From Candidatus Iainarchaeum sp. (GTDB lineage Archaea; Iainarchaeota; Iainarchaeia; Iainarchaeales; CSSED10-239): a stretch of DNA of 32,000 nt. Where the stretch lies: contig JBBISB010000001.1 in NCBI GenBank assembly GCA_037441475.1, positions 36,418 to 68,417 of the forward strand, written 5' to 3'. Position 1 is the first letter of the stretch, and the number at the start of each line of letters is the position of its first letter. Under the pieces are notes generated by a model that did no database searches, was not told the origin of the DNA, and worked only from the letters and a program-made list of their open reading frames with translations. Shown here piece by piece: positions 4,740 through 28,961 of the stretch. A program made the translations under genes and the position numbers.

Positions 4740-7172
4740 ATGGCTATAGATTTAAAAAAATTAACTAAAAAAGAAGTTGAAGAATATTTAATAAAACAAA
4801 TAAACTCTCCTTCAAGATATATTATCTCCCCAATAACTGTTTCTGTTCTTTCAAAATTCAATATCAATAGATTTGATTTTGCAAAGAAATTAAAAGAAGT
4901 TAAAGCAAACTACACTGTTTTACAAGGTCTAGGTTTTAAAGCAAGAACTTTAGAAAAAGCAGGCTTTACTGTTAAGGAATTAAAAGAAGTTGGTTTTAGT
5001 TCAGTTAATCTTAGAAACTTAGACTTTACTGCAAAAGAACTTTATTCTGTTGGTTATACAGTAAAGGACTTACAAGTTGCAAACTATGCTTTAAAGGACT
5101 TAAAAGAAATTGGTATTAACTTAAAGGACTTAAAGTCAGTTGGGTATACTGCAAAAGATTTAAAAAAAGTAAACTTTACTGCAAGACAACTTTTAGAAGT
5201 TGGCTTTACTGTTAAGGACTTAAAGAGAGCTGGATTTAATGCTTCTCAACTTAAGAATATTTCTCTTACAGCAAAAGAACTTTATCAAGGAACATACACA
5301 ATAGCTGAACTTAAGAAAGCTAAATACAGTATTGATGATTTAAGAAAAGCTGGTTTTACTGATAAAGAGATTGGTATTAAGATAAAAGAAGAGAAGGTTA
5401 AACCTCTTAAAAAATTATCAACAGCTGTTAAAGCTAAAGTTTCAAAAATTAAAGAAGCTAAAAAAGAAAAAGCTAAGCAAAAAATAAAAAAGAAAGAAGA
5501 AGCTAAAAAAGAAGAAGTTGTTAAAATAGTTATTAATAATGAAACTTTAAAAAAAATGACAGCTAAAGAACTTTTCTCTTACGGTGTTACTGCAACTGTT
5601 TTAAAAGAAAATAAATTTACTGCAAAGGTTTTAAAGTCATTAGGCTTTAATGCAAAGGACCTTTACTATCTTCATTTTACAGCAAAAGATTTACATGAAG
5701 CAAACTTTTCTTTAAAAGACTTAAAGAATGCTGGTGTTGGAACAAAAGACCTTAAAGGCTTAGGCTATAAACCAGTTGACTTAAAAAAAGTAAAGTTTGA
5801 TAAACATACAATTCTTTTTGCAGAGTTTGATGCAAAGGATTTAAGAGAAGCTAAATTTTCTTCTAAAAAATTAAAAGAATATGCATATTCTGCAAAGGAC
5901 CTAAAGAATGCAGGTTATTCCTTAAAGGACTTAGTTTCTGCAAACTATAAATTAAAAGAAATCTTAGATTGTGGTTTTACATTTAAAGAACTTTCAAAGA
6001 TATTTACTTTAAAACAACTTTTAAACAAAGGTTACACTTTAAAAGAGATTAGAGAAGTGTATACTCTTGAAGAAATAATTGAAAACAACTTCACTATTAA
6101 AGAACTTTTAGATGTTGGCTTTACATATAAAGAACTTTTAAAAGAAATACCTTTAAAGAGATTTAAGAAAGAAGGAATCTCTCCAAAGCCATTGTATGAA
6201 AATGGAAAAACTATTGAAGAACTTAAAGAAGCTGGTTATGAGTTTTCAGAACTTGTATCTTTACAAAAGATAGAATCTGTTCTTCTTTCTGAAGATAAGG
6301 TTGTTTCTTTAGATGAACTTAAGTATTTAAAATACACAATACCTGAACTTTTTAAACTTGGGTATACTGTTAGAGACTTAAGAGAAGCTGGTTATCAAGC
6401 AATTGAGCTTAAGAACGCAGGTTGTACTTGTTATGATTTATTAACAGGTGGTTTTTCTTTAAGAGAAGTACATATGCTTGGTTGTACAATTAAAGACTTT
6501 TTAGCTAATGGTTATAACTTAGTTGACTTAAGACTTGCAGGCTTTACTGCTCTTGAACTTCATTTAGAGGGATACTCTTTAATTGAACTTAGACATTCTG
6601 GTTTTTCAGCAAGAGAACTTTTAAGTATTGGGTATACAGCAAAACAATATCATGCAGCTGGGTATACTGCAAAAGAACTTTATGATGCTGGTTTTGATGT
6701 TTCAACCATTAGGTTTGCAGGGTATAAGGCAAAGGAACTTTATGGTTTAGGAGTTCCAATCTCTGAGTTTTATAATGCTGGGTATACTGCAAAGGAAATG
6801 ACTCAAGCAGGATATCATCCAAAGGACTTAAAACCATTCTATTCAGCTAAGCTTTTAAAAATGGCTGGTTGTGATGCTTCTTCTATGAAGGAAGGCGGTT
6901 TTTCAGCAAAGGAACTTTATGATGCTGGGTATACTGCAAGACAACTTCATTATGCTGGTTATCCTGCAAAAGATGTTTTTGACTTAGGTGTTGGTATAAG
7001 GCTTATGAAGGTTATACACTATAGTGCTAAGGAACTTAAGGGTTTAAACTTTTCTGCAAGAGAGCTTAGAAATGTAGGTTATTCTTTAGAGGAACTTAAG
7101 CTTGCTGGTTATTCAGAAGCTGAGCTTTTGGATGCTGGTTTTTCAATGTCAAAGATAAGGGATACTCTTTAA
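4740..7172 (+). CDS. 810-aa decapeptide-repeat protein (aGfTaKeLkx units; pentapeptide-repeat-like), cytoplasmic
   Basis: Intact ATG ORF preceded by GGATGGTG. There is no signal peptide. Almost the whole protein is 10-residue units such as AGFTVKELKE, VGYTAKDLKK and AGYTAKELYD. A Lys-rich linker splits them into two arrays. Confidence 0.85.
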   Translation: MAIDLKKLTKKEVEEYLIKQINSPSRYIISPITVSVLSKFNINRFDFAKKLKEVKANYTVLQGLGFKARTLEKAGFTVKELKEVGFSSVNLRNLDFTAKELYSVGYTVKDLQVANYALKDLKEIGINLKDLKSVGYTAKDLKKVNFTARQLLEVGFTVKDLKRAGFNASQLKNISLTAKELYQGTYTIAELKKAKYSIDDLRKAGFTDKEIGIKIKEEKVKPLKKLSTAVKAKVSKIKEAKKEKAKQKIKKKEEAKKEEVVKIVINNETLKKMTAKELFSYGVTATVLKENKFTAKVLKSLGFNAKDLYYLHFTAKDLHEANFSLKDLKNAGVGTKDLKGLGYKPVDLKKVKFDKHTILFAEFDAKDLREAKFSSKKLKEYAYSAKDLKNAGYSLKDLVSANYKLKEILDCGFTFKELSKIFTLKQLLNKGYTLKEIREVYTLEEIIENNFTIKELLDVGFTYKELLKEIPLKRFKKEGISPKPLYENGKTIEELKEAGYEFSELVSLQKIESVLLSEDKVVSLDELKYLKYTIPELFKLGYTVRDLREAGYQAIELKNAGCTCYDLLTGGFSLREVHMLGCTIKDFLANGYNLVDLRLAGFTALELHLEGYSLIELRHSGFSARELLSIGYTAKQYHAAGYTAKELYDAGFDVSTIRFAGYKAKELYGLGVPISEFYNAGYTAKEMTQAGYHPKDLKPFYSAKLLKMAGCDASSMKEGGFSAKELYDAGYTARQLHYAGYPAKDVFDLGVGIRLMKVIHYSAKELKGLNFSARELRNVGYSLEELKLAGYSEAELLDAGFSMSKIRDTL
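4911..7157 (+). repeat. 30-bp-period coding tandem repeats (two arrays, about 4911-5375 and 5541-7157)
   Basis: Recurrent DNA words include gctgggtatactgcaaa (near 6657, 6777 and 6917), gttgggtatactgcaaaagat (near 5140) and aaggacttaaa. The units are diverged, contiguous and always in frame. Confidence 0.8.
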
Positions 7173-15472: not shown

Positions 15473-15625
15473 ATGCCATGCATGAGAAAAAAGCCAAGTA
15501 CTTTTGGTAAAGATGTTTTTGCAACCACAAATAAAAGCAGTTTAAGAAATAATGGGTCTAAGGAAAACGCAGCAAGAAACAATAACCAAAGACTTATTAA
15601 AAAACCTGCAAACAGTAGACAATAA
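15473..15625 (+). CDS. possible 50-aa basic small protein
   Basis: GAGGT lies 8 nt upstream of ATG 15473. The ORF reads MPCMRKKPSTFGKDVFATTNKSSLRNNGSKENAARNNNQRLIKKPANSRQ. No family recognised, and it could be fortuitous in a promoter/terminator spacer. Confidence 0.25.
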   Translation: MPCMRKKPSTFGKDVFATTNKSSLRNNGSKENAARNNNQRLIKKPANSRQ

Positions 15626-15668
15626 AAAAATAGGTTCCTAAAAATAAAAAAATAGGAAAAGAAAAAAA
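15626..15668 (-). terminator. oligo-T tracts downstream of the giant surface-protein gene
   Basis: On the minus strand the stop is followed by TTTTTTTCTTTTCCTATTTTTTTATTTTT. The plus strand shows a duplicated ATAAAAAAATAGG. Confidence 0.45.
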
Positions 15669-18600
15669 CTATTTTCTTTTCTTATAAATCTCTTTTCTTG
15701 AAAACAAGTACATGAAACTTGCCATAATCACTAAGACATAAAGAGTGAATGGAAGGATCTTTTCTGGAGCAAGAGGGATGTTTAAAGAACCTCTATCACT
15801 ACCTCCAGAACCTGCAAATGGGTTTAAAAGATTCTGAACTGTTGTTCCATATACCTTACCATCTTCCCCAGGTTTAAAAGTTACACCATCCCTGTATTCT
15901 GGGTTGAAAGGTATTAAATGACCATTTTCTGTATACCAGTTACCAGTCTTTGGATCATACCAGAAAGCACCATTCTTTCCTTGTGCTGAAAGTAAGGTCT
16001 CTGTTAGGTCATTATACTTTAATTTTGGAATACCGTCTTCTGCTGAAAACTCAAATTTATGCTCTTGACCATCCTCTGTGGTTACTATAAAACCATCAGG
16101 GGTAGTTAGAATAGAGCTTATAGCTTGATCAATAACTTGTCCAGTTTTTTTATCAATAATCTTCATTCTTTGTTGACATTCTGGAGCTGGTGTTGTATAG
16201 AAAATAAAAGTCTTTGAGGCTGTATCAAACATTTGGAAAGGACCTACTTTTTCTAAAGCCTTGTTCATTTCAACAGACTTTGCAACAGCTTCAGGGTTTG
16301 ACATGTCAGGAGAAATACTCATCTCAAAGGCATTCTCTTCACAGCCTGTAACTGGGTTTGTTTCTTTAATAGGCTTAACATCCATCCCTTTAATCTCAGA
16401 TTGATGCATTACATATGTTTGTTGAACCCACATTATGTAACTGTTTTTTTCTCCGTTGTATATTAATTGTCCTCTTTCAAACTGAACAGCTATGTTTTTA
16501 CCAATAGTTACTTCTTTACCTTCTATAGGGAAAAGCTTAGTTGTTCTATCTCCTAGGACAGTTATTCTTGATGCCTCACCAGAGGCTATTTTTCTTGGTG
16601 TTCCTTCAGCAACTATTTCTAAGCTATTACTTCTTCCTTTTGGTATTAAGTCATACTGTGTTTCAGGAGAGATTTGGTTTGTTGAAGTAACTTGTTTTAC
16701 AGCACCTAAATAATCTGTTAAAACATTGCCTGACATTTCAAGACCAGTTTGTTCATAGTAGTTTGTTTTTAAACAATTTAAGAAATTAATATCTTCTATT
16801 TTTAAGTTACCATAAACATCTATGTTAAACAAAGGAGTGTTTGTGTCTGGAACTGGGATATAGGATATACTGTGAGGAACAACTTTTGCTGGAATACCAA
16901 GGTTTGTTGCTATTAAACGTACCCAATCTTTATTTTCTGGACCAATTATTCTCTTGATATTTCCATCTTTATCAACAATGTTCATTTCTCCTTTTTCCTT
17001 ATCAACTATTAAGGTATCTACTGTTGTCTTATCTATTAAGTGTTCAACACCTTTGTCGTTATAACCGCTTGCTCTACAACTTGAGGCCTCTCCAAGTTCA
17101 AAGAAGAAAAGTTTTCCATCAAATGAAGCTGATGTGTTACCTATAGTTTCTATTCTTGATTGCATTATTGGATTGTCTTTTATTTTTGTTTCAGCAAACT
17201 GTTTTACTTCTTGTGTTGTTTTTGTAATTGATTCTTGAAGTTCTGTGTTTTTTGTAATGTTTGTTAAGGTCTTTTCAACAGAGTATGCACCTTTTGAGAT
17301 TGCATCTCCAACTTTGTTTTTAGGGTCTTTTTCTATTCTTTCAAACTCCTCTTGTGCAACAAAGAAGTGAGTGTAGTAACCTTCTTCATGATCTACACAG
17401 TTGTATATTTCAGGAACAATTACAAGTTGAGGTAAGATATCACCAAAGATTGCACCTAAGACTATTCTATGTTGAGGAACACTTAAGGAATAATAAATTA
17501 CATTTGAAAAACCAGCAGCAACTGCACCTGCTCTATATGATTGACCTGTCCATTGATTTGTCCACCCTATTGGTATTCCCATAACCTCTAGGTTTCTAAG
17601 TTTAGCTGAACATGTTTCTTCTTCTTTTATAGCTGTTAAAAGATTCACTGAGTTTTCTGTTTTAAAACCAGCTAAAGAACCATCATAGTCTGTGTGGTGA
17701 GAGAAAGCTATTAATGTTTTACCATATTTTTCAAAGTTTTCTCTAGAGGTGTTTTCTAAAAGATAACTTGTTGTTGTAACACCTGTGCTTGTTTGATAGT
17801 TAAGATGTAAGTTGTCATTTATATTTGTACCAATTGTTTGTTTTGCATCTATTGATCTACTTTTTGTAATTTCTTCAAGAAGTCTTGTGTCTCCTATCTT
17901 AATTTGACATGCATTTGTGTTACATGTTTTCATAGTGTCTGTAAGTAAAGCTATGTTATCTGTAAAGCTTCTTCTTATATGCCCTTCAGTAACGTTTCTT
18001 ACCCAGTCTGAAAAGCCTTGTGTTGTTTGCCATTCTGTACTTTCAAGTGCTCCTTTTGGAAGGTTTACCATCCAGAAGATAATTGAGTTAATGTATTGCA
18101 TGAAAAGATCTCCTTGATCAGAACCATCGTTTGCAAAGAAATCTATGTAGGAGTCATTATAGATATCTCCAGTTTCTCCATGTTTAAAGATTACTGATGT
18201 GTATGTTTCTGGTATTCTAAACATACTGTATCTATCAAATGCTCCCCCAAGTAAAGTAGAACCAGCTGTCTTAAATTGCCAGTATCCAAAGTTATAAAGG
18301 TAAGCTTTTCCTGAATCTGCAATAATATCAAATGCTCTTTTATCCCATTGAGTAATTGTTTGTTGTTTCATTCTTTGGTTTATATAGTTTAAACCTCTTC
18401 CTGTACTCCAACCTTGATTATTTAAGACAGTTACAACACCGTCTGTTACTAGTTCAGCATCTTTTATTTTCTTAGCCCCCATTTCTTGGAAATAACCTAA
18501 GGAAACTTCTAAAGGGTTAATTCCGTATTTTGGAAGATCTGCATCTGGAATTCCTGTTTCAATAATATTTCTCATGTTTATAGGTTCATTTGGTTTTATA

Positions 18601-20588
18601 TCAGCCATATCAATTACAGAACCTCTTACTGATTTTGCAGTTCCGTCTTGGGCAATATATTCTATTAAGACATCTGGTTTTTTATTGTATATAATATCAT
18701 TAAAGTTTAATGGATTTGCAGCACCTGTTGTTTCTTTGAAAGGAATAATAACATCTATTTGTTTAGGACCATCTGCAAAGTTAACTGTTATTCTTTTTGT
18801 TTCAAAATTATTCATGAAATTATCTGCAACAAGATTACCTGCATTATCAGTTTTATAAGGAGCATCTGTTAACATATCTCTAAACTTCTTTGACGAAGTA
18901 AGCTCTGTTGTTGTAATTTCATTTTTAAGCCTTACTTTATTCATCAGTTCATCTTTATTATTAATTATTTTACCTCTTTCTTTTAAAAGAGTTATATCTT
19001 TAGCTCCATCATCCCATTTGAAGTGTCCATTTGAAAATGCAGAGAATTCTTTATTAAGTTTATTTGCTCTTAAGACTTCTTCTGTTAACTTATCATATTG
19101 ATCTTTTGTTAAAGAAGCATAAAAGTCTTCCATTGTTTTTGTTTTATTAAATAAAATATCTGATGAACCTGGAGCTATTTTTTTAATATTTGCAGAAGTA
19201 ATGTCTTGCATCATTCTAGCTGTTCTTATGTTGCTTTGATATTCTAAGACAGATTCCATGAAAACTCTTTGTTGAGATTTATTAAGTTTTGCAAAAGTTC
19301 CTGAACCAAAGAATTCATTTTTAATTGTGTCTACATTCTTTTTAGAGTTTAAGGCATCAAGATATTTATCAAACTCAGGCTTCATATTGTATCTGTCTAT
19401 GTTGTATGTAATTTTTTTATTACTTTGTGCAAGATTTGATATATAATCATCCATGTTTTTTGATATTTTATTGTATCTATAAGTTGATACTGCAGAATCA
19501 AGAACACCCATATTATTTGTTAAATTATCAAAGAAACCATGTTTTCCTCTTATTCCACCTATAGCTTTATCATTAATTAGTTTTGTATTTCCTATTGATT
19601 TTGGAATGTTTTTAAAAACTCTACCTGTGAATTTCCATAACATAGGAGAGACAGATGTAAAAACAAGATCTGCTGAGTAATACATGTTAAAGACTTTATC
19701 AAACAAAGAGTACATGTTTATGTAACAGTTATCAGAGTTACAGGTACTCTCCATACTTGCATTAAAAGAATCTGTAATTATACTGTTTTTTATAGCTTCA
19801 TCTAAAATTAATTGCATTGATCTTATTTCTGCTTCTGTTATATTACTATCATCTGAGAATTGTATTTTTCTAAACTCAGCAAGCTCTTCATAAGACATGT
19901 TTGAAAATAAACCTAAATCTACATTTGAGTTGTAATCAAGAGAAGGATCTATTATTTCATTTGCAGCTTGACCTAAATCATCCAGACGTAATCTTTCAAT
20001 TAATAGCATGTCTATTAAATCTCTGCTAATAGACTTTGCTTGAGGGAAAAAACCATACTTTCCATTCTGTCTGAAAAGACCTTCATTTTCTAAGTAACAT
20101 GCAAAAGCATCTCCTCCTTGACATCTACCTACTCTTAGGGTATCTTTAAGATCTAAACCATGTGAGAAAGGACCATAACACACTTGTCCTAGAACAGTTG
20201 GAATTTCTAAAGGACTCATTAATTGATTTGGAATTTCTGTTTTACCTACAACATCATTTGCTTTTGTGTCTTTTGAAGTTATTAAAACTTGACTTTGATC
20301 CATTGTTTCTCTATTAAAGTTTGCTGGTTGATCACTGGATAAAAGATCTACTTTAAAACCCTTTACTAAAATTTCATTCCATAACCTCTCTACAGCTTCT
20401 GGAGATAACTCCTCTGTGTAACATGCAGAGCCCATGCTACTTGGGTTATAGCTTATTGGAACAGCATCTTGAAAGTAGAGAGTAGTATTATTTTTTGAAG
20501 ATAATCTATCTACATCTATGGAAGATGCAAAGACTCCATTTATCATTAATAATAAGAAAAATATTGCCAGTAGTTTATTTTTATTCAT
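15669..20588 (-). CDS. 1,639-aa orphan secreted protein with a C-terminal membrane anchor (candidate adhesin or S-layer-like surface protein)
   Basis: The N-terminal signal peptide is MNKNKLLAIFFLLLMINGVFA|SS. The C-terminus is a TM helix plus basic tail (ILPFTLYVLVIMASFMYLFSRKEIYKKRK). It has many N-x-S/T sequons and scattered Cys. No domain recognised. Confidence 0.85.
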   Translation of the reverse strand: MNKNKLLAIFFLLLMINGVFASSIDVDRLSSKNNTTLYFQDAVPISYNPSSMGSACYTEELSPEAVERLWNEILVKGFKVDLLSSDQPANFNRETMDQSQVLITSKDTKANDVVGKTEIPNQLMSPLEIPTVLGQVCYGPFSHGLDLKDTLRVGRCQGGDAFACYLENEGLFRQNGKYGFFPQAKSISRDLIDMLLIERLRLDDLGQAANEIIDPSLDYNSNVDLGLFSNMSYEELAEFRKIQFSDDSNITEAEIRSMQLILDEAIKNSIITDSFNASMESTCNSDNCYINMYSLFDKVFNMYYSADLVFTSVSPMLWKFTGRVFKNIPKSIGNTKLINDKAIGGIRGKHGFFDNLTNNMGVLDSAVSTYRYNKISKNMDDYISNLAQSNKKITYNIDRYNMKPEFDKYLDALNSKKNVDTIKNEFFGSGTFAKLNKSQQRVFMESVLEYQSNIRTARMMQDITSANIKKIAPGSSDILFNKTKTMEDFYASLTKDQYDKLTEEVLRANKLNKEFSAFSNGHFKWDDGAKDITLLKERGKIINNKDELMNKVRLKNEITTTELTSSKKFRDMLTDAPYKTDNAGNLVADNFMNNFETKRITVNFADGPKQIDVIIPFKETTGAANPLNFNDIIYNKKPDVLIEYIAQDGTAKSVRGSVIDMADIKPNEPINMRNIIETGIPDADLPKYGINPLEVSLGYFQEMGAKKIKDAELVTDGVVTVLNNQGWSTGRGLNYINQRMKQQTITQWDKRAFDIIADSGKAYLYNFGYWQFKTAGSTLLGGAFDRYSMFRIPETYTSVIFKHGETGDIYNDSYIDFFANDGSDQGDLFMQYINSIIFWMVNLPKGALESTEWQTTQGFSDWVRNVTEGHIRRSFTDNIALLTDTMKTCNTNACQIKIGDTRLLEEITKSRSIDAKQTIGTNINDNLHLNYQTSTGVTTTSYLLENTSRENFEKYGKTLIAFSHHTDYDGSLAGFKTENSVNLLTAIKEEETCSAKLRNLEVMGIPIGWTNQWTGQSYRAGAVAAGFSNVIYYSLSVPQHRIVLGAIFGDILPQLVIVPEIYNCVDHEEGYYTHFFVAQEEFERIEKDPKNKVGDAISKGAYSVEKTLTNITKNTELQESITKTTQEVKQFAETKIKDNPIMQSRIETIGNTSASFDGKLFFFELGEASSCRASGYNDKGVEHLIDKTTVDTLIVDKEKGEMNIVDKDGNIKRIIGPENKDWVRLIATNLGIPAKVVPHSISYIPVPDTNTPLFNIDVYGNLKIEDINFLNCLKTNYYEQTGLEMSGNVLTDYLGAVKQVTSTNQISPETQYDLIPKGRSNSLEIVAEGTPRKIASGEASRITVLGDRTTKLFPIEGKEVTIGKNIAVQFERGQLIYNGEKNSYIMWVQQTYVMHQSEIKGMDVKPIKETNPVTGCEENAFEMSISPDMSNPEAVAKSVEMNKALEKVGPFQMFDTASKTFIFYTTPAPECQQRMKIIDKKTGQVIDQAISSILTTPDGFIVTTEDGQEHKFEFSAEDGIPKLKYNDLTETLLSAQGKNGAFWYDPKTGNWYTENGHLIPFNPEYRDGVTFKPGEDGKVYGTTVQNLLNPFAGSGGSDRGSLNIPLAPEKILPFTLYVLVIMASFMYLFSRKEIYKKRK

Positions 20589-20601
20589 AATTTATCCTTT
20601 T

Positions 20602-21099
20602 TTATAGGTATATTAAATATATTAAAATTGCTATTAATTTTGGAAATATTAAAAGAATAATAAAGAAGATGATGTTTGTTAAGATCAAACTCTTTATTAA
20701 ATTAAGGTTTGTTTTTGGATGTTTCTTTTTTTCATTAAACTTATCGTAGAAGGCAAGGGTAATAAAAGAGAAGCCTAAAAAGACACCAGATATTAAAATA
20801 TTAACTATTAATAATCTTATTAAGTGATAGAAGATTATACCAAGGATGTTTAAGAAGCTAACTCCTTTAAAGATACTTAGGAGTGGTAAAAAGTATATTA
20901 AAAGTAAGATAATATAGCTTAAAATAAAAATTATTATAAAAAGAGAAAAGATAACACTTTTTTTCTTTCTTAAAAGAAGATATTTATTTTTAAAAATTTT
21001 AATAAGTATGAAAAAAGGAATAGCACAAAGAATAGATAAACCAATTAATTTTACTATTGTCAATAAATAATTTAAAACCACTTGAAATAAATTTTCCAT
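20602..21099 (-). CDS. polytopic membrane protein (165 aa), immediately upstream of and co-oriented with the giant protein gene
   Basis: About five hydrophobic helices separated by Lys-rich loops. It stops 13 nt before the giant ORF start. No family recognised. Confidence 0.6.
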   Translation of the reverse strand: MENLFQVVLNYLLTIVKLIGLSILCAIPFFILIKIFKNKYLLLRKKKSVIFSLFIIIFILSYIILLLIYFLPLLSIFKGVSFLNILGIIFYHLIRLLIVNILISGVFLGFSFITLAFYDKFNEKKKHPKTNLNLIKSLILTNIIFFIILLIFPKLIAILIYLIYL

Positions 21100-21216
21100 A
21101 TAATCCTCTTTAATAAATATATATTGCTATTATATAGTAAATTGAAAGATTTAAAAGCCTTATTATATATATTTTATTATATAGATATATTTATAACTAT
21201 TAAGGATTAGACAAAT

Positions 21217-21888
21217 ATGGACGTTCAAAACATACCAAGAAGAGAAAGAAGGCATTTTAGGAAATATATAGATGGTGAGATTGTTTATTCTGAGGTTCCT
21301 TTTGGACATGAAGAAAAACATAATTATTCTAAAAATAATGATTTTTCTAAAAATAATGATACAACTGTTAAGAATCTTCTTGATATTGATGGTAAGAGAA
21401 AACCTGTTTTGCATGATGATCAAAAAATACAGAAGGTTTTACAAAATATATCTGATATTGTGTCTCCAGATTTAGACTCTGTTGCTGAAGCTATTTATCA
21501 CCAGATAAGTAAGGATAGTAGTTTTAATGATTTTAAGAAAGAAGAGATTGAAGAGACTATTAAAGGAAGTAAACATTATAGGGCTATAAAGAATGATAAG
21601 AATCAAGAGATTATTGATTCTGATAATATGAAGTTATTGGTTGAAGATGTTTTTATTCAACTTGAGAATGAAAACAAAGAAAGTAACCCTTCTGAAAAGA
21701 AAGAAGCTGTAAAAGAATCTTCTTCTAAATGTAAAAAAGAACCTGCTTCTAAGGGAAAGAAAGAGGATTTAAAGAAAGTTAAAAAGAAAGAAGAAAAATC
21801 AGAGATTCAAGATTTATTGGACGATGATTCTGATGAAATTGATTTTGATGAAGAAGATAGTGATGATGATTTAGGCCTTAAATTTTAA
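21217..21888 (+). CDS. acidic/Lys-rich low-complexity protein with a DDDLGLKF C-terminus
   Basis: 223-aa ATG ORF on the opposite strand, between the two minus-strand units. The C-terminal third is KKE-rich and then Asp/Glu-rich. Its stop overlaps the convergent gene's stop by 4 nt. Confidence 0.6.
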   Translation: MDVQNIPRRERRHFRKYIDGEIVYSEVPFGHEEKHNYSKNNDFSKNNDTTVKNLLDIDGKRKPVLHDDQKIQKVLQNISDIVSPDLDSVAEAIYHQISKDSSFNDFKKEEIEETIKGSKHYRAIKNDKNQEIIDSDNMKLLVEDVFIQLENENKESNPSEKKEAVKESSSKCKKEPASKGKKEDLKKVKKKEEKSEIQDLLDDDSDEIDFDEEDSDDDLGLKF

Positions 21889-22643
21889 GGTTCTTCTGGA
21901 TCTTGATATTCTTTACATCTAAGGTTTGATATGTTTTCATTTTGTTCAAAAGTAGAACTAAGTAACTGATTATTTATACTGCTTGTTGATGGCCACATCG
22001 TTAAGCTTGCAACTGTTCTTACTTCTGCTAATCTAGAATCTAGGGTCTTAAAGATTAATGGTGTTGAAGAAGAGTAGAGTTTGTTTGATCTTTGTACCAA
22101 GTATCTTACTGGGGTAATACTTATTGGATCACATAAATAGTATTTTGAGACTATTTCTAAATCTGGTTTAATTTCATTTATTTTTAACATAAAGTAAATA
22201 AAATCATCATTACTAGTATTTTGGATATAATAAATATAATCATAGTTTGGTAAAGGATGCATTAATGATTTTATGGTATGGAAGAGATTATACTTTGCAA
22301 GATCTTTAACATTTTCTTTATTAAGAGAATTTACATCACTTCCACCTATCTTTTGATTAAAAAGATAATCACTTTTTATAGCTGTAATCAAGTAATCAGT
22401 TTCTTTACTATTTAAAATATTTTTATCAAAATCTAAAGGAATATTTGTGTAGTAGATGGCCTTAAGGCTGGAGTTTGTATATTCTTTGAAGTATAGGTTA
22501 TTTATAGCAAGATCTATTCTTTCTCCGTATGTTGAGGAAAATTTGAAAAGAAGAACACATAAGGCAACAATGATTGTTAAGAAAAATAAAGAGTCTGTCA
22601 TTGCTGCTTGACCTTTATCATTCTTAAGTTCTATTAATTTCAT
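21885..22643 (-). CDS. pilin-like protein with a class III signal peptide (252 aa)
   Basis: The N-terminus is MKLIELKNDKG|QAAMTDSLFFLTIIVALCVLLF, i.e. a [KR]G|Q site followed by a hydrophobic helix. It is paralogous to the N-terminus of ORF 24712..25260. Confidence 0.6.
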   Translation of the reverse strand: MKLIELKNDKGQAAMTDSLFFLTIIVALCVLLFKFSSTYGERIDLAINNLYFKEYTNSSLKAIYYTNIPLDFDKNILNSKETDYLITAIKSDYLFNQKIGGSDVNSLNKENVKDLAKYNLFHTIKSLMHPLPNYDYIYYIQNTSNDDFIYFMLKINEIKPDLEIVSKYYLCDPISITPVRYLVQRSNKLYSSSTPLIFKTLDSRLAEVRTVASLTMWPSTSSINNQLLSSTFEQNENISNLRCKEYQDPEEP

Positions 22644-22650
22644 AAATATT

Positions 22651-23178
22651 TTACTCCCATATTAAAACATACAATCTTGCTGTTGTTGAAAAACCATTAT
22701 CTCTTTGTAGGATAATTGGATAAAGGTAGTTGATGTGATTTTTTGAAAGATCTTTTAATTGTTTTAAATTTTCTTCTTCTTCGTTACATATAAAATAATC
22801 TGGTGTACTAGGGTCATTTTTAAGGCTTGAAAGAACTATTGATTCATGGTTATCAGATATTTCTTGGAGAGAAATATTTGCATAATCTTCAGTATCTAAG
22901 GGAAGATCTATAAGAAAGGCATTCCATTTTTTTGTAGTTTTTATTTTATCACATTTATCTTTGAAATGTTGGTAATCAACAATAACAGGATCTGATTTTA
23001 ATTGCATAGAAATTTCAATTGCTTCTTGGTTTAAGGTGTATGTTTTGTTTTTAGCATTATAATCATTGAAGGTACCTAAAAAAACTGCAAAGAAAACAAC
23101 TAAACCTAGAAATATTGGTATTAAACTAGGAAGGTCATCTCCGATTGCTCCAATAAATCCTTTTTTTGTTTTAATCAT
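22651..23178 (-). CDS. pilin-like / N-terminally anchored secreted protein (175 aa), degenerate class III signal
   Basis: MIKTKKG|FIGAIGDDLPSLIPIFLGLVVFFAVFLG is followed by a soluble domain with 2 Cys. Confidence 0.5.
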   Translation of the reverse strand: MIKTKKGFIGAIGDDLPSLIPIFLGLVVFFAVFLGTFNDYNAKNKTYTLNQEAIEISMQLKSDPVIVDYQHFKDKCDKIKTTKKWNAFLIDLPLDTEDYANISLQEISDNHESIVLSSLKNDPSTPDYFICNEEEENLKQLKDLSKNHINYLYPIILQRDNGFSTTARLYVLIWE

Positions 23179-23198
23179 TTTTTATCATTTTTTAAAAA

Positions 23199-23855
23199 TT
23201 ATTCAGAAACTTGTGTTGCACAAAAGCTCCCTGTTATATTTTCACCAAGACATTTAATTTCTTCTCTATTAAAGTTATCTAAATTACATACATACTCTCT
23301 GCAAGTGTAAAGATTATTTTTTCTTCCACAAGGAAGTACATAATAATAACTTTGACTATCTTTTACATTTTTTATAAACATAAATTTAGTTTCATTTGAG
23401 TTTGCTTTTCTAGGGTCATAGATTATTTGTTGATTATTTTCTTGGGAAAAAGAATAATTTCCGTTAGCATAAGTAGAAGAATAGAAAGCAATGGTTCCAT
23501 TATAATCAAGGTTGTATGCACCTAAAATATTTCTTTCTCTATAATCTGTTAAATAGATTATTAAAGATTGATTATTAAGTTGCTGGTAGCTTTGTAGCCC
23601 TAGCTTATAGGGGGTTCCTGAAAGAGAGGAACCTTCATTTATTTTTATGGTTTTTGGAATATCAATAAACTTTACTGAACAGTAGCTATCTGAGTCTATT
23701 AAGGATTTAATCTCTTTACCTATCTTAAAGGCAGTTTCATAACTTTGTCTTGTCTTAAGGTTATCATTTAAAGTGTTCATAAAGAAGATTACAACTACAG
23801 CTATTGCTGTAACAAAGATAAGCATATTTATTTTTGATAAAGTAAATTCAAACAT
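23199..23855 (-). CDS. Cys-rich pilin-like protein (218 aa) with an atypical short leader
   Basis: The N-terminus MFEFTLSKINMLIFVTAIAVVVIFF recalls FTLxE-type pilin N-termini but lacks a K/R-G leader. It has 7 Cys, clustered near the C-terminus (CGRKNNLYTCREYVCN...CLGENITGSFC). Confidence 0.5.
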   Translation of the reverse strand: MFEFTLSKINMLIFVTAIAVVVIFFMNTLNDNLKTRQSYETAFKIGKEIKSLIDSDSYCSVKFIDIPKTIKINEGSSLSGTPYKLGLQSYQQLNNQSLIIYLTDYRERNILGAYNLDYNGTIAFYSSTYANGNYSFSQENNQQIIYDPRKANSNETKFMFIKNVKDSQSYYYVLPCGRKNNLYTCREYVCNLDNFNREEIKCLGENITGSFCATQVSE

Positions 23856-23864
23856 CTATTAATT

Positions 23865-24434
23865 TCACCTTGTTTTAATCATACAAATAGTATGATTAGC
23901 TCCTGAACCTGATTTTTTAAAAATCTTGTATCTTCCAGAGGGTATCTTTTCTATAGGGTTAATTGCTTCTTCTGATGCTTCTAAAGGGGCACATTGATTT
24001 TCACCAATTTCAAATTGTAGGTTTGTTGGAAGATAGGTACAGATAGGAGGAATTGGTTGTTTATAATCTAGCTTTTCTGGATTTTCATAAGAGTATTCTA
24101 AAAGAACACAACTTGTACCTGACCCACATATTCTTTCACATCTATCTTTATCATCTGAAATAATATTTAATCTAACCATTTCATATTTATCATTATAACA
24201 AGCCTTGGTTGTAAAATCAATAGTTCTGTATGCAAGATCTGAACCTAAAACTATTTCTCTTAAAGAAGAATTAAGATTACTAAAGTCTTGTCTTTTGTTT
24301 CCAAGACAGGTATTTTCATTTAAGTTTGCAAGAGCATAGTTACCTGCAATAATAACAAAAGTCATTACTATAATTGCAACTAAAAGTTCAAAAGGAGCAC
24401 TCATTTGTGCTTTTTGTTTTTTACTTGAATACAT
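23865..24434 (-). CDS. Cys-rich pilin-like protein (189 aa), class III-like signal (KA|Q)
   Basis: MYSSKKQKA|QMSAPFELLVAIIVMTFVIIAG at the N-terminus. There are 10 Cys in the soluble domain, including DRCERICGSGTSCV. Confidence 0.55.
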   Translation of the reverse strand: MYSSKKQKAQMSAPFELLVAIIVMTFVIIAGNYALANLNENTCLGNKRQDFSNLNSSLREIVLGSDLAYRTIDFTTKACYNDKYEMVRLNIISDDKDRCERICGSGTSCVLLEYSYENPEKLDYKQPIPPICTYLPTNLQFEIGENQCAPLEASEEAINPIEKIPSGRYKIFKKSGSGANHTICMIKTR

Positions 24435-24503
24435 ATATTATAAAGATATTATAAGAAGTATTTAAAATAGTTATCTTTTTTTAAAATAAATAAAAAAAGG
24501 CTT

Positions 24504-24704
24504 CTACTGAACAGGAGCTGACTGTACTGGAAGAGCTGCTTGTTTTGCAGAAGTTTTAACAGATTTATTAAACATTGGTTTTATAACAGCGATAAGGACG
24601 ATTGCAACAATTGCTATTACAACTAAAAAGAAAATTGTGTTAGACTCTGTTTGTCCTCTTTGATCATTTAAGATCTGTTTTATTTTCTTTTTAATTGTTT
24701 TCAT
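24504..24704 (-). CDS. minimal Flp-like pilin (66-aa precursor)
   Basis: MKTIKKKIKQILNDQRG|QTESNTIFFLVVIAIVAIVLIAVI is followed by a 25-aa tail only, ending AALPVQSAPVQ. Confidence 0.6.
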   Translation of the reverse strand: MKTIKKKIKQILNDQRGQTESNTIFFLVVIAIVAIVLIAVIKPMFNKSVKTSAKQAALPVQSAPVQ

Positions 24705-24711
24705 ATCTCAA

Positions 24712-25260
24712 TCACTCTTTTACAGGGAATACAATACATACTCTTGAACTATTTGTGGATTCGAATCCTGATTCAGTTATATCCAATTCTGATAAAATAT
24801 TATTTGAAAGTGAGCTTGAAGAAGTTATAAAATTATCTAATCTTTCAGCATCTCTATGACATAAGACTCCAAATTTATAATTTATTCTTTCTGATTTTTT
24901 TATTTGAAGTATTTGTCCATCAGAAGAAACTCCAAAATCAGATGAATATTTGGAAGGCACAATAAATTTTACACTTTCAGGATCCATTCCTGATCCATCA
25001 GTAATTGCATCTGTGGCAACTGTTCCTTGAGTTTTAGAAGATACTTTAATAGATTCTGTAAGTGTTATTGTTCCTGGTAAGTCTTGATTACTTTTTATTT
25101 TTTCTTTAACACTATCAGTAATATTTCCTCCCGCAGGATTTATTCCACCAATTATTGGCATTAAAACACCAAGAAGGGCAAGAGCAACAACAGCAGCTAT
25201 CAGTAATTGAAATGTTGAGAATGCTTGACCTTTACTATTTTTTAAAGATATTAATTTCAT
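24712..25260 (-). CDS. pilin-like protein with a class III signal peptide (182 aa)
   Basis: MKLISLKNSKG|QAFSTFQLLIAAVVALALLGVLM at the N-terminus. The Q at +1 and the hydrophobic helix match archaeal DUF361/EppA-type pilins. Confidence 0.65.
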   Translation of the reverse strand: MKLISLKNSKGQAFSTFQLLIAAVVALALLGVLMPIIGGINPAGGNITDSVKEKIKSNQDLPGTITLTESIKVSSKTQGTVATDAITDGSGMDPESVKFIVPSKYSSDFGVSSDGQILQIKKSERINYKFGVLCHRDAERLDNFITSSSSLSNNILSELDITESGFESTNSSRVCIVFPVKE

Positions 25261-25341
25261 ATTAATTTTTCACCTCAAATATATAATAATATATAAAAAC
25301 TAATTAATTTTAAAGTCCAAAAGATATTTAAATGTTATTCT

Positions 25342-25839
25342 TTAAAAGAAAATTAAACCTTTTACAATACTTAAGGAAATTGTAAAAATAACAGGTATTA
25401 ATATCATAAATACAACCTCTTTTGTCTGTATACCAGCTCTTGGTTCCTTGTAATCAAAAACTTTGTTTTTATAAGTAACTCTTCTTCTAACTATTAAAAT
25501 ATTCCATAAAGAACCAAAAATAAAAGCAGAGATTGCCCAAATAACAGTTATCTTTAGATTAAAACTTGAAATCTTCATTATGCTTTTCCAAAAAAGCATT
25601 AAAACACCGTAAGAGACACCTAAAGAAAAGAACATTGTTATAAACAATTTTACTTTTCTGTTTAAGAAGAAATCTAAGGATTTACTAAATATTAAAGATA
25701 TTAAGAACAAAAGGCTCATTAAAACAACAATTAAGGCAATTATTGCTAAGATAATAATTCCAAAGAAATAACCAAAGACAAGGACGATTATGGCAAGTAA
25801 AAAATATTTAATGTTTCCTGTCCAACTTCTTTTTCTCAT
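25342..25839 (-). CDS. polytopic membrane protein (165 aa) embedded in the pilin operon
   Basis: Four to five TM helices. It lacks the paired-Asp/GxGD motif of prepilin peptidases. No family recognised. Confidence 0.55.
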   Translation of the reverse strand: MRKRSWTGNIKYFLLAIIVLVFGYFFGIIILAIIALIVVLMSLLFLISLIFSKSLDFFLNRKVKLFITMFFSLGVSYGVLMLFWKSIMKISSFNLKITVIWAISAFIFGSLWNILIVRRRVTYKNKVFDYKEPRAGIQTKEVVFMILIPVIFTISLSIVKGLIFF

Positions 25840-25856
25840 TCTTTAAAACCATTTTT

Positions 25857-26384
25857 TTAATTTGTTAAACCTTTTGGTATCTTGTTGATGTACATTACAC
25901 AGAAAAGTCTTTCACAATCATCTGGATCATTTATAGGCGCATTTGCATAAGTTGTGATCTCAGAATATGTTTCAGTATTAGTTAAATCCGAAATAGACAT
26001 TCCACTTAAACCACAAACAAAATAAACATCTGTTTTAAGATATTTTTTATCAATAACAGCACCATAATTTTCAAGCTTAACACCTGGACCTACAATAAAA
26101 GAAAAACATCCTTCTTCAATGTTTCCAAGCTGCTCATACCTTGAGTGACTAATAATACCTCTTACTAAAACATCTTTAACAACAAAAGGTTTATCCATAC
26201 TTATTATTGGACTGTTTATAGCAGATATAAAGGCATCTTCTATCTTTTGATTACTAATAATTATTGCTTGGTCATTTGTTTTGTTAACCATCATAATAAT
26301 AATACCAAGGATGGCTACAGAGATTACAAAAGCTATCAAAAGTTGATATGCTTCAAAAGCCTGTCCTTTATTATTTTTAATCAT
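25857..26384 (-). CDS. pilin-like protein with a class III signal peptide (175 aa)
   Basis: MIKNNKG|QAFEAYQLLIAFVISVAILGIIIMMV at the N-terminus, with 5 Cys in the soluble domain. Confidence 0.65.
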   Translation of the reverse strand: MIKNNKGQAFEAYQLLIAFVISVAILGIIIMMVNKTNDQAIIISNQKIEDAFISAINSPIISMDKPFVVKDVLVRGIISHSRYEQLGNIEEGCFSFIVGPGVKLENYGAVIDKKYLKTDVYFVCGLSGMSISDLTNTETYSEITTYANAPINDPDDCERLFCVMYINKIPKGLTN

Positions 26385-26410: not shown

Positions 26411-28651
26411 TTAAAACATCATGTTAGCTAAGATAGTTGTTAAGATAAAAAGAATAGTTGCAACAGGAAGAGTTTGTGCAATCCTTACTTTTGTTAAAAT
26501 ACTGTTCTCTTGCTCTATCATGGTTGTAAAGTAAACAATAATTATAACAATCTGTATAACATAGATAGCAACAATTATTAAAAATGTTGTAGAATCTGCA
26601 AACTTTGCAATATTTGTAGGGTCAATGGAGGTACCTAGACCAGAGATACTTGAAGTGTTTATACTTCCACCAATAGCACTCACTCCTGAGCTTATACCTT
26701 GAACCATCTTATCCATATCATCCATAACATTACTTGAGGCAATGGAATTTAGAGTTGACATTACTATTCTTTGAAGAGCAGTTGTTATACCTAAGATAAT
26801 AGGTGCAATATACTTAGCCATACTGTTTAATGTCCCTGTAATATCTGCAATCAAGCTTGAAAGCATTTTAGAAACTTCATCTGTATTTCTAAGTTGCATA
26901 GAATAAGACATTAATGTCTTTGCAGCAACTGAAACTCCAAGCTGTACTGAATCAACAACTAATAGCATTGCACTATTAATTAATCTTGAAGGATTGTTCT
27001 TTAAAGCACCGTAGTTAGGATCAAACAATGAGGCCTTTAAATTAAGACCCATTATTCTTATATTGTCCAAGGTTTTTGCAAAAACATTTTGTGCAATCAA
27101 AGAGTTTGGTAAAAAGTTTCTTGTATGGTTTAAGGCCTCTTCAATAGGTTTATTTTCACCAAGTCTACTTGCAATAATGTAAAGAGCATCCTTAAACTCT
27201 TCTTCCATTTTTTGTGATTTTACCTGAACTCTTCTTTTGTAGATACTTGTTCCATAAAGATAAATTGATATTAAAAAACTTATTAATAGTAAGGAACCAT
27301 AAATGATATAGTAAGGAGTTGTGTCATTCTCTGTTTTTAACCAAAAATCCCTCTCAGTTTGACATTGGAACTTAGATTCTTTAGCTTTTAAAACAAGCTC
27401 CTCTGTGGTACACATAAAATCAGCATCACTTACACTTTCTCCTTCTGAGATGTACCCTTCATTAAGAAGAATATTGTATTTTGTTTTTCCTAAAGTGCTT
27501 TGCAGAAAAACACTTGTCCCTATTAAGATAACTCCAACAATTATCATTAACATAAAAACATTTATTTTAAAATTTCCAAAAACCATAGTGTTTTTAGGAG
27601 GAAGATCAGGGTGGTTATCAGGGATTACAGGTGGAAGGTACGTTATTGGTCTTTCCCTTATTACCTTTCTTGCAAAGATAAAACAACCTAAGGGAATTGC
27701 AATATTGTAAATTAAGATTAAATAAACTGGTCTTGCAAGAGAAGAATCTGAGAAAGCAGAACCAACTGGTAGAATAATTATTAAAAGAAGAGGAAGTAGA
27801 ATACCTAAATAAAACATAACCATTGCAGGTTGAGATAAACCCCTTGCATACTCTTCAAGTTTTCCTTTTATAGAAGAAAGAGTATCCTCCATGGTGTTAT
27901 CTAGGATTTGATATCTTTTTGATTCTGAAATTTCAATAACACTTGATCTTATTTTCATTAAAGACTTTTTAAACTCTTGAGAGACATCTCCCCATTTATA
28001 GGCAAGCTCATCAACAGCCTCAGCAACACTTCCTTTAATACCGACCTTAACTTCCCATAATAAAGTTTTTAGGTCCTCAGCTATCTTTCCATGACCATGG
28101 TTTGATGCAAACTCAATTGCTTTTTCAAGGTTTGGTACAAGTTTCATAGACATTATCATATACCCTAAGATTTCAGGAACAAAGGTTAAGGCATATACTT
28201 TTTCAAGATCAACTTTTCTTTGTGGATAGTTTTTAAAATAATTTATGGCATAGATGTATCCTATTAAAGGACCACCAATTGAAAAAATAGTTGGAATCAT
28301 TGCACTTCCAAACATCTTAATTAAGCTTGGCATTGCATAAAGATATAAAAGTAAGACTGTTACAAAAGTTATTATAAATCCACCAAAGATAACTGTCTTA
28401 TAACCAGCAAAATATTCTTCTGACTTTAAATCCCATTTTAGAAAGTCAATAGCATTTTGTAACTTTTCATCAAATTTTGTGTTTCTACCAAGAGAAGGAA
28501 ATTGTTGATATGCCTTTTTACAAAAAACAACATATTTATTTTCAACTTTTTTTGAAAGTCTTTCTTCATCTAGAGAAAAATCTCTTGCTTCTATGGATAT
28601 TGAACTATACAACTGGCCAGGGCTTTTTCTTGGTGTTTTTGTCTGATCCAT
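26411..28651 (-). CDS. 746-aa polytopic membrane protein with two T2SS-F-like halves (FlaJ/TadC/EpdJ-type type IV filament platform; provisional)
   Basis: It has two cytoplasmic helical-bundle-like segments, each followed by TM helices: LVPNLEKAIEFASNHGHGKIAEDLKTLLWEVKVGIKGSVAEAVDELAYKW and FKDALYIIASRLGENKPIEEALNHTRNFLPNSLIAQNVFAKTLDNIRIMGLNL. It is the first gene of the pilin operon. The call was made by eye only. Confidence 0.55.
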   Translation of the reverse strand: MDQTKTPRKSPGQLYSSISIEARDFSLDEERLSKKVENKYVVFCKKAYQQFPSLGRNTKFDEKLQNAIDFLKWDLKSEEYFAGYKTVIFGGFIITFVTVLLLYLYAMPSLIKMFGSAMIPTIFSIGGPLIGYIYAINYFKNYPQRKVDLEKVYALTFVPEILGYMIMSMKLVPNLEKAIEFASNHGHGKIAEDLKTLLWEVKVGIKGSVAEAVDELAYKWGDVSQEFKKSLMKIRSSVIEISESKRYQILDNTMEDTLSSIKGKLEEYARGLSQPAMVMFYLGILLPLLLIIILPVGSAFSDSSLARPVYLILIYNIAIPLGCFIFARKVIRERPITYLPPVIPDNHPDLPPKNTMVFGNFKINVFMLMIIVGVILIGTSVFLQSTLGKTKYNILLNEGYISEGESVSDADFMCTTEELVLKAKESKFQCQTERDFWLKTENDTTPYYIIYGSLLLISFLISIYLYGTSIYKRRVQVKSQKMEEEFKDALYIIASRLGENKPIEEALNHTRNFLPNSLIAQNVFAKTLDNIRIMGLNLKASLFDPNYGALKNNPSRLINSAMLLVVDSVQLGVSVAAKTLMSYSMQLRNTDEVSKMLSSLIADITGTLNSMAKYIAPIILGITTALQRIVMSTLNSIASSNVMDDMDKMVQGISSGVSAIGGSINTSSISGLGTSIDPTNIAKFADSTTFLIIVAIYVIQIVIIIVYFTTMIEQENSILTKVRIAQTLPVATILFILTTILANMMF

Positions 28652-28769: not shown

Positions 28770-28961
28770 ATGGTTATTAAAGTTAAGCAAGATTACCAAG
28801 CTTGTATTGGATGTGGGGGGTGTGTTTCTGTATGTCCTGACAATTGGAAATTTTCATCAGAAAAACCAAAACCAATAAAGACAGAAGTAAAAGAAGTTGG
28901 GTGTAATAAACAAGCAGCTGATGTTTGTCCTGTCCAGTGTATTACAATTGAAGAAGATTAA
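28770..28961 (+). CDS. small single-cluster ferredoxin
   Basis: 63 aa with CIGCGGCVSVCP and a distal CPVQCI. Confidence 0.75.
   Translation: MVIKVKQDYQACIGCGGCVSVCPDNWKFSSEKPKPIKTEVKEVGCNKQAADVCPVQCITIEED

Follow-up and report, generated by a model that had tools for sequence, protein, structure and literature searches.

Type IV pilus loci of archaea often hold large extra proteins, as comparative genomics has made clear (Makarova, Koonin, Albers 2016, PMC4858521). These extras are either 'S-layer-like', with a C-terminal transmembrane (TM) helix and conserved cysteines, as in Pyrobaculum and Thermoproteus, or they are PilY-like adhesins that carry DUF2341 (PMC4858521), and a dark-matter survey of 2019 noted DPANN pilus islands endowed with 'specific surface proteins' (PMC6393860). 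Large proteins that combine a signal peptide, a C-terminal TM helix and conserved cysteines are a recognised accessory class of archaeal type IV pilus loci (PMC4858521, PMC6393860). We report here on a giant protein of 1639 amino acids (aa) and its 165-aa membrane partner, encoded side by side in a stretch of 32,000 nucleotides (nt) of Candidatus (Ca.) Iainarchaeum sp. (assembly GCA_037441475.1, contig JBBISB010000001.1, positions 36,418 to 68,417), which, taken at its full length, is called the window in what follows. The giant protein shows the marks of the class: a T2SSF-like gene and pilins with class III signals lie nearby, and the protein itself has a signal peptide, a TM anchor and cysteines. 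We propose to understand partner and giant protein as a two-gene accessory module, with an adhesin or contact role, of a Tad/Flp-like type IV pilus system specific to Diapherotrites (Iainarchaeia); read from sequence, this proposal as a whole deserves a probability of about 0.45. Its components are not of equal strength: the surface-anchored, pilus-linked nature of the giant protein is well supported, and the role as an adhesin or close-range contact protein is our best guess.

The giant gene and the topology of its product

The two genes and the regions of the giant protein are listed below, in window coordinates, with the evidence in brackets; AF2 stands for AlphaFold2 and pLDDT (predicted local distance difference test) for its confidence score.

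15583..15668, minus strand: oligo-T tracts, five runs of T5-T7 within 86 nt after the stop codon (sequence)
15669..20588, minus strand: giant gene, 1639 aa, of an uncharacterised Diapherotrites-wide family (open reading frame, translation, homologues)
15672..15767, minus strand: C-terminal TM helix (aa 1608-1630) and basic, predicted cytoplasmic tail RKEIYKKRK (hydropathy, sequence)
15912..16874, minus strand: membrane-proximal beta-rich region, aa 1239-1559 (AF2, pLDDT ~80-90)
16875..18428, minus strand: conserved core, aa 721-1238 (invariant columns, comparison of family motifs, hydropathy)
18429..19508, minus strand: helical bundle and small beta domain, aa ~361-720 (AF2, pLDDT mostly 75-92)
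19509..20525, minus strand: N-terminal conserved region, aa 22-360, with six conserved cysteines, DTLRVGRC and YSLFDK (alignments)
20526..20588, minus strand: Sec-type signal peptide, aa 1-21, MNKNKLLAIFFLLLMINGVFA (sequence; N-terminal hydrophobic segment conserved in the family)
20602..21099, minus strand: polytopic membrane protein of 165 aa, directly upstream of the giant gene across a 13-nt gap (open reading frame, hidden Markov model)
21100..21216, no strand: AT-rich divergent intergenic region, 117 nt (sequence)

The window is very rich in A and T, with a G+C content of 23-34% per kb, and a stop-free run as long as this one is most improbable in such DNA: taking a stop-codon frequency of about 0.08, we estimate the chance of an open reading frame of 1640 codons at ~28-30% G+C as P ~ 1e-59, so that the giant gene must be considered real. 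At its N-terminus the protein reads MNKNKLLAIFFLLLMINGVFA|SS, where an n-region and an h-region are followed by VFA|SS in the manner of a Sec signal processed by signal peptidase I, and cleavage would fall after VFA. A hydrophobic window at this place is seen in nearly all of 31 diverse homologues. The N-terminus is not of class III, as it has neither the [KR]G[QF] nor the long hydrophobic helix of the neighbouring pilins. At the other end, the TM helix is present in 31/31 of these homologues and a basic tail follows it in most of them. A polytopic giant protein was also considered and rejected, the N- and C-terminal segments being the only ones that are consistently hydrophobic across the family. 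Signal sequence, conserved C-terminal anchor with its basic tail and conserved cysteines together support a type I membrane protein, exposed at the cell surface.

The predicted ectodomain is acidic (209 Asp and Glu against 170 Lys and Arg in the giant protein) and a Gly/Ser-rich juxtamembrane linker precedes the anchor. The 14 cysteines are all invariant among 14 full-length close relatives, and most of them still are when a 22%-identical relative is added. Downstream of the gene, the oligo-T tracts look like an archaeal terminator; a scan for promoters and terminators of bacterial type gave counts at or below the shuffle expectation, its models being bacterial and hence uninformative for an archaeon. 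An earlier account of this DNA, drawn from its letters and called here the sequence-only reading, had already described the giant 1,639-aa open reading frame, with which coordinates and translation agree, its Sec-type signal, its single C-terminal TM helix with a KKRK tail and the oligo-T tracts after it, and all of these stand. It had also seen many N-x-S/T sequons, which is not the case in any meaningful sense: 13 are observed against 17.2±3.8 in composition-preserving shuffles, fewer than expected, two of them being conserved (FNAS and ENTS). As the sequons are not enriched, the idea of a richly glycosylated protein loses its support.

A family that spans the Diapherotrites

The same reading had taken the giant protein for an orphan, a view refuted both by a profile search that gathered 200 clusters and by 55 genomic loci. 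A word-indexed protein search returned the identical protein and 13 full-length relatives, all of 1617-1730 aa and with 42-73% identity, together with a partial relative at 24% identity labelled Diapherotrites; an alignment pass added one more, bringing the total from this database to 16 full-length or partial homologues. With residues 680-1605 as a profile, a search of 1.84 billion representative proteins gave 200 clusters (at 50% identity) at E<=1e-3, of which 102 at E<1e-30; their members are nearly all 1,200-1,730 aa long and the match lies at their C-terminal end. Those with a named source are hypothetical proteins of Candidatus Diapherotrites, and the weakest group of matches is labelled Candidatus Micrarchaeota, Ca. 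Norongarragalina included. A scan of genomes, taking one genome per species, recovered 55 loci of the family in 54 species-level genomes, usually with one copy in each. The closest named relative of the window is Ca. Forterrea multitransposorum (complete genome CP045477, 73-80% identity), and Ca. Iainarchaeum andersonii and AR10 (complete genome CP010424) are also among the loci. All named Diapherotrites genomes that the scan recovered carry the family, the two complete ones included. Literature searches yielded no paper on this family.

The whole architecture is kept across the 31 diverse members, from the N-terminal signal through a set of motifs (DTLRxGxC, YSxFDK, YxDAYxDxFANxGSDxGDxF, FxHH and CVDxxxGYYxH) to the beta-rich C-terminal region and the TM helix with its basic tail. 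The branch labelled Micrarchaeota retains only some of the cysteines and the C-terminal region. Three observations on individual loci may be recorded here. One metagenome-assembled genome has two copies of the giant gene (L018 and L021, contigs DAOOON010000020 and DAOOON010000005), each followed by the same tRNA synthetase, and two strains mixed in the bin are more likely than true paralogy. Next to the distant relative in locus L062, a second giant gene (1653 aa) was considered as a paralogue and rejected on comparison. In locus L060 (1-8403; Ca. Norongarragalina, Micrarchaeota) the gene of the family adjoins two huge NosD/beta-helix proteins, of 1949 and >2329 aa.

A two-gene unit tied to pilus genes

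The giant gene does not travel alone. In 49/49 loci where upstream sequence is available, a hidden Markov model of the 165-aa partner detects an orthologue as the next gene upstream of the giant gene (E-values between 1e-8 and 1e-65); there is no upstream flank in the 10 loci that gave no match. No family in Pfam, NCBIfam or PHROGs and no sequence in the PDB matches the partner. Its two strongly basic loops, aa 35-46 and aa 119-129, should both be cytoplasmic, so that the helices between them must be even in number, and four hydrophobic peaks are seen in the orthologues; most likely, then, the protein has four TM helices. Partner and giant gene, judged by the gene layout, are a transcription unit of their own, apart from the pilin operon, since a 223-aa gene on the opposite strand separates the pair from the last pilin gene. 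The promoter of this unit is likely to lie in the divergent intergenic region 21100..21216, where TATA-like tracts are found and GAGG precedes the ATG.

The proteins of the window were compared by tblastn with all fetched loci. Wherever at least 5 kb of upstream flank is available, that is in 34/34 loci, 3-7 pilin homologues lie upstream on the same strand, and this order persists where the identity of the giant protein falls to 26-30%, Ca. Iainarchaeum andersonii and AR10 being among the loci concerned. The PilC-like protein is matched as well in those loci whose flank reaches far enough, and the gene of the charged 223-aa protein always stands between the pilin operon and the pair. Downstream, neighbours vary with the lineage: an Asp/Asn-type tRNA synthetase follows the giant gene in the window, and PAC2 together with the ATPase set is found elsewhere. 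It is because these downstream neighbours change that the conserved block can be delimited as, specifically, pilus operon, charged protein, four-helix protein and giant protein. Of all the results, this synteny is the firmest.

On the pair, the sequence-only reading fared well: a 165-aa gene on the same strand, 13 nt upstream, is what we find, the word 'dedicated' that it applied to the partner is justified by the 49 loci, and its suggestion that pair and pilus are linked, for which it had recommended a look at conservation and synteny in related genomes, is upheld by the 34 loci with pilins. Its count of five TM helices should be lowered to four, on account of the basic loops and of the hydropathy of the orthologues. 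It had also placed the pair directly downstream of the pilus locus, which is right as to adjacency and wrong as to directness, the opposite-strand 223-aa gene intervening. The pilus side of the locus comprises the following features.

21217..21888, plus strand: highly charged 223-aa protein with an N-terminal motif of the PRRxRRF type (translation, comparison of loci)
21885..26384, minus strand: seven pilin-like genes and a second 165-aa polytopic membrane protein (translations, motif scan)
24504..24704, minus strand: Flp-like mini-pilin, 66 aa, showing a class III-type leader (RGQ) and one hydrophobic helix
25342..25839, minus strand: the second 165-aa polytopic membrane protein, inside the pilin cluster
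26411..28651, minus strand: polytopic 746-aa platform protein of PilC/TadC (T2SSF) type (hhalign)

Six of the seven pilin-like proteins have leaders of class III type, in which KGQ, RGQ, KAQ or KGF precedes a long hydrophobic helix. The 66-aa mini-pilin is the best conserved 'pilin' across the loci (28-80% identity, mostly 43-80%); it is similar to the tiny Flp pilins of Tad pili and may be the major subunit of the filament. The platform protein matches Pfam T2SSF below threshold only (E=0.0018); compared by hhalign with bona fide T2SSF proteins of related loci, its family reaches 95% probability (E=3e-8). In the Forterrea-like lineage, a ferredoxin gene (28770..28961) takes the position of the ATPase upstream of the PilC-like gene. 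That position is filled elsewhere: the pilus pattern holds in the distant locus L061 (1-4303), where a T2SSE ATPase with an intein lies directly upstream of the PilC-like gene, and in L034 (65-2994) the same place is held by an open reading frame with an ATPase-like end and no Pfam match. In L020 and L047 an ATPase and two T2SSF genes converge on the giant gene from downstream, and in L062 the pattern is rearranged, with a separate VWA protein present.

The 223-aa protein has Lys/Glu-rich stretches and an acidic tail, and its N-terminal IPRRERRHF (PRRxRRF) is kept in the related loci that were examined. Its gene shares 4 nt with the end of the last pilin gene, and on the other side it diverges from the gene of the 165-aa partner. 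The orthologue in L024 (5504-6250, Ca. Iainarchaeum andersonii) gives weak, sub-threshold zinc-ribbon matches at its C-terminus, and the protein may be a regulator. As to the second 165-aa protein, it equals the giant gene's partner in length; it is conserved in the Forterrea/Iainarchaeum clade only (28-72% identity) and was not detected in more distant loci.

Regions of the giant protein

Searches of the giant protein in Pfam, NCBIfam, PHROGs and the sequences of the PDB found no domain, in keeping with the earlier statement that none is recognisable, and none of the Pfam and NCBIfam models matched the 31 diverse members of the family. In the PDB, a sequence search with the single protein and one with a profile of 31 sequences returned low-complexity helical noise only (stathmin, designed helical repeats). 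BLAST comparison of the protein with itself found no internal repeat, again as had been claimed.

Structure prediction in segments followed by Foldseek had been recommended by the sequence-only reading. AF2 was run on residues 22-720 and 680-1605, with alignments of 13-14 sequences, and two regions came out with confidence, aa ~361-720 and the all-beta aa ~1239-1559, amounting to ~40% of the chain; no fold match could be accepted. With so small a part confidently modelled, any inference from fold is weak for this protein. In the N-terminal conserved region (aa 22-360) the pLDDT is <50. Conservation, as read from its profile, is lowest in the helical bundle with its small beta domain (aa ~361-720), a part that is nonetheless modelled with confidence. 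Confidence is low again in the core (aa 721-1238), which holds an acidic loop, YNDSYIDFFANDGSDQGDLF (aa 810-829), FSHHTDYDG (aa 962-970) and CVDHEEGYYTHFFV (aa 1064-1077); within the acidic loop, NDGSDQGD resembles a Ca2+-binding loop. A conserved, Ala/Gly-rich hydrophobic stretch of ~40 aa is also found in the core (aa 1020-1060, window 17409..17531, minus strand). It is a borderline case, exceeding a TM-like hydropathy threshold in about one third of the family members, and AF2 renders it as a low-confidence helical hairpin.

Conservation reaches furthest in the membrane-proximal beta-rich region (aa 1239-1559): the profile matches to distant members map there, and nothing outside the C-terminal region is clearly shared with the Micrarchaeota relatives. 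When this region was compared with the PDB by Foldseek, beta-propellers ranked first (those of acylaminoacyl-peptidase, tricorn and Kelch) at E~1e-4, with TM-scores <=0.16 and a root-mean-square deviation of ~20 Å; PilY1 is not among the top 50 matches. Comparison of the C-terminal profile with itself by hhalign gave one weak 36-column echo and no blade periodicity. Given these very low TM-scores and the absence of a blade repeat, the beta-propeller was rejected as a fold assignment and is kept as a lead. For the N-terminal half Foldseek found nothing in the PDB, and it found nothing among viral models.

Proposed role of the module and alternative explanations

We infer that the giant protein is held with its partner in a membrane complex and acts in the same process as the pilus, because it combines a Sec N-terminus, an anchor and 14 cysteines with a coupled partner and with co-inheritance of the pilus genes. 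The scenario would run as follows. The two genes would be expressed as a bicistron from their own promoter, the gap and the T tracts, both observed, suggesting co-transcription. The giant protein would be exported by the Sec machinery, with its signal peptide cut after VFA, and would then remain anchored by its C-terminal helix, leaving the KKRK tail in the cytoplasm and some 1,580 residues turned outward, as expected from the positive-inside rule. Up to seven disulfides, formed from the 14 conserved cysteines, could stabilise this ectodomain. The strict adjacency of the genes suggests that the four-helix partner, and perhaps also the base of the pilus, is where the membrane-proximal beta-rich region and the anchor would dock, and the more variable distal regions would contact the target. 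At long range, attachment would be the task of the pilus; at close range, the giant protein would adhere to a surface or to a host cell. The gradient of conservation, highest in the C-terminal membrane-proximal part that is shared with Micrarchaeota, fits this model of an accessory module.

Adhesion or contact is preferred as the role because the membrane-proximal part is conserved, the distal middle is the most variable, and the best-studied organism of the lineage, Ca. Forterrea, was predicted to be symbiotic (PMC5905446). Several points nevertheless weigh on the other side. No adhesin-type domain was detected (immunoglobulin-like, cadherin, VWA, beta-helix, DUF2341 or PilY1), and the confident models are limited to about two fifths of the chain. 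The pair lies outside the pilin operon, with an opposite-strand gene between, and neither a pilus ATPase (T2SSE) nor a prepilin peptidase is encoded within the 32-kb window. At least one distant relative from the Micrarchaeota, in L060, has lost the linkage to the pilus. Finally, the N-terminal region and the core are well conserved, while typical host-contact adhesins have fast-evolving distal parts. The sequence-only reading went further and saw here the largest exposed protein of the cell; this is unlikely, as Probst and Banfield reported five membrane-anchored proteins of >1,800 aa in Ca. Forterrea (PMC5905446).

The giant protein could instead be the S-layer protein of Diapherotrites, or its anchor, and stand beside the pilus operon merely as one more envelope gene. 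We regard this as unlikely, and as less likely than a role in adhesion. Its signal peptide, large acidic ectodomain, Gly/Ser-rich juxtamembrane linker and C-terminal TM anchor would suit such a function, and so would its presence in 54 species-level genomes, usually as one copy; comparable proteins of pilus loci were indeed labelled 'S-layer-like' by Makarova et al. (PMC4858521). However, Pfam and NCBIfam detect no PF05123, TIGR01564/TIGR01567, DUF1608 or SlaA/SlaB in the giant protein and its 31 relatives, the sequons are not enriched, and 14 conserved cysteines sit badly with S-layer proteins, which are typically poor in sulphur amino acids (bioRxiv 10.1101/2021.04.28.441871). Pilins kept upstream in 34/34 loci argue, moreover, for a dedicated role. 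What weakens this explanation further is the case of the Micrarchaeota, the sister phylum, which keep distant homologues of the giant protein and yet use a different S-layer family: their S-layer protein, proven and the most abundant, is a 101-kDa member of PF05123 (bioRxiv 10.1101/2021.04.28.441871).

Somewhat less probable again, in our judgement, is that the giant protein and the four-helix protein form a structural collar or anchor of the pilus machine, spanning the envelope and giving the filament its way out of the cell, rather than an adhesin. Co-inheritance with the pilus genes and the membrane partner, absolute in loci with enough flank, conservation that is strongest near the membrane, and a core and N-terminus conserved as one expects of a machine part would all be accounted for. 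But no characterised archaeal type IV pilus is known to need such a component (PMC4858521), the pair is a separate transcription unit, and the giant gene persists in L060 where there are no pilus genes nearby.

An enzyme tethered to the surface, such as a hydrolase acting on a polymer of the host or of the environment, is improbable. The His/Asp/Glu clusters that would form its active or metal site (FSHHTDYDG, CVDxEEGYYTH and NDGSDQGD) do not vary among Diapherotrites, even in sequences of 22% identity. However, searches of Pfam, NCBIfam and the PDB matched the protein to no enzyme family, the Micrarchaeota branch lacks the HH and acidic motifs, and the acidic loop seems to resemble a Ca2+-binding loop as much as a catalytic one. 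Bolder, and to be given slim odds, is the conjecture that partner and giant protein are a lineage-wide cell-contact apparatus of Diapherotrites and Micrarchaeota which, with the pilus, opens contact with the host membrane, aa 1020-1060 acting as a membrane-inserting element; if true, the giant protein would have a part in forming the cytoplasmic bridges that have been seen to link DPANN cells with their hosts. That the neighbourhood of giant gene and pilus is mere coincidence, as the opposite-strand gene between the two units, the housekeeping tRNA synthetase after the giant gene and one distant relative with no pilus genes nearby might suggest, is hardly credible when 34/34 loci, some with giant proteins of no more than 26-30% identity, and the distant L061 as well all show the same gene order, while the downstream neighbours change.

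Other genes of the window

Two features of the window that touch neither the pair nor the pilus are mentioned for completeness. The probable ends of a CorA Mg2+ channel gene lie apart, as a 70-aa N-terminal piece (3527..3739, plus strand) and an 88-aa C-terminal piece (4310..4576, plus strand) that carries the GMN motif (Pfam CorA positions 207-288 of 292), and the 570 nt between them hold no long open reading frame; either a disrupted pseudogene or an error of assembly might account for this. Further on (4740..7172, plus strand), an 810-aa protein consists almost entirely of pentapeptide repeats; it aligns with the repeat part of the NCBIfam model for DotG/IcmE at 495 bits, below the 750-bit cut-off, and has no obvious link to the giant gene.

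Significance

To our knowledge, no member of the Diapherotrites has been cultured, and whether they live freely or as symbionts is disputed. A protein of ~180 kDa that is firmly coupled to a membrane partner and to the one obvious system of surface filaments is, for that reason, among the few concrete molecular handles on the contact of these organisms with their surroundings or hosts. If it proves to be an adhesin or a contact device, the family would be a marker of host association and a target for pull-down experiments identifying the host; if it proves to be an S-layer protein or a collar of the pilus, a new envelope architecture would come to light. In either event, a family of at least 200 clusters at 50% identity, with proteins of 1,200-1,730 aa and no model in Pfam or NCBIfam, is an annotation gap worth filling. 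A specialist would expect proteins of this sort in DPANN pilus loci; it is the class-wide conservation, the obligatory membrane partner and the lack of annotation that make this family a worthwhile target.

Comparison with known systems

The S-layer proteins of archaea (SLP_Mh of Ca. Micrarchaeum harzensis, in PF05123, Sulfolobus SlaB and tetrabrachion) are all, as the giant protein is, Sec-exported, large and acidic. Tetrabrachion has a C-terminal membrane anchor, and the giant protein is likewise anchored in the membrane by its C-terminus, as are both SlaB and tetrabrachion. It differs from these proteins in having no S-layer domain, no enrichment in sequons and many cysteines.

SPEARE of Nanohaloarchaeum is a large membrane-anchored DPANN protein thought to mediate interaction between cells. 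With it, and with the five large proteins of Ca. Forterrea, the giant protein shares its size class, its membrane anchoring and its proposed role. The >1,800-aa proteins of Ca. Forterrea even come from the same lineage, but the giant gene lies beside the pilus operon and not in a 42-kb island; it is conserved throughout the class instead of varying from strain to strain, and its product has no protease, nuclease or beta-helix domains, in contrast with the Ca. Forterrea proteins and SPEARE.

PilY1/PilC, the tip adhesins of bacterial type IVa pili, are marked by a C-terminal beta-propeller domain with a Ca2+ site. They also exceed 1,000 aa and are also encoded beside minor pilin genes; the giant protein likewise has a beta-rich C-terminal region and an acidic loop that perhaps binds Ca2+. 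By analogy, the giant protein may work like PilY1, as a pilus-associated adhesin. It has no match to the PilY1 and Neisseria_PilC models of Pfam, however, and PilY1 has no membrane anchor, whereas the giant protein has a conserved C-terminal TM helix and a basic tail. Other domains of pilus-associated proteins are likewise missing from Pfam matches: VWA, of TadG-like proteins, from the giant protein and 31 relatives, and DUF2341, of the pilus adhesins of Methanococci (PMC4858521), from 31 members of the family.

The best likeness remains that with the large extra proteins of archaeal type IV pilus loci. Like them, the giant protein is large, starts with a signal peptide, is anchored by one C-terminal TM helix and carries multiple conserved cysteines, and it is encoded beside a TadC-like gene and diverse pilins, both descriptions being computational predictions (PMC4858521). 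Since the context fits this class, no homology to the families tested was seen and no paper on it was found, the family is, on these grounds, a new one within a known kind, that of large surface proteins encoded at type IV pilus loci of archaea. The class is defined by context, and the giant family has no detectable relation to the arCOG and Pfam families tested; what sets it apart, in addition, is the strict coupling to a four-helix partner, in a unit divergent from the gene of a conserved charged, possibly zinc-ribbon, protein.

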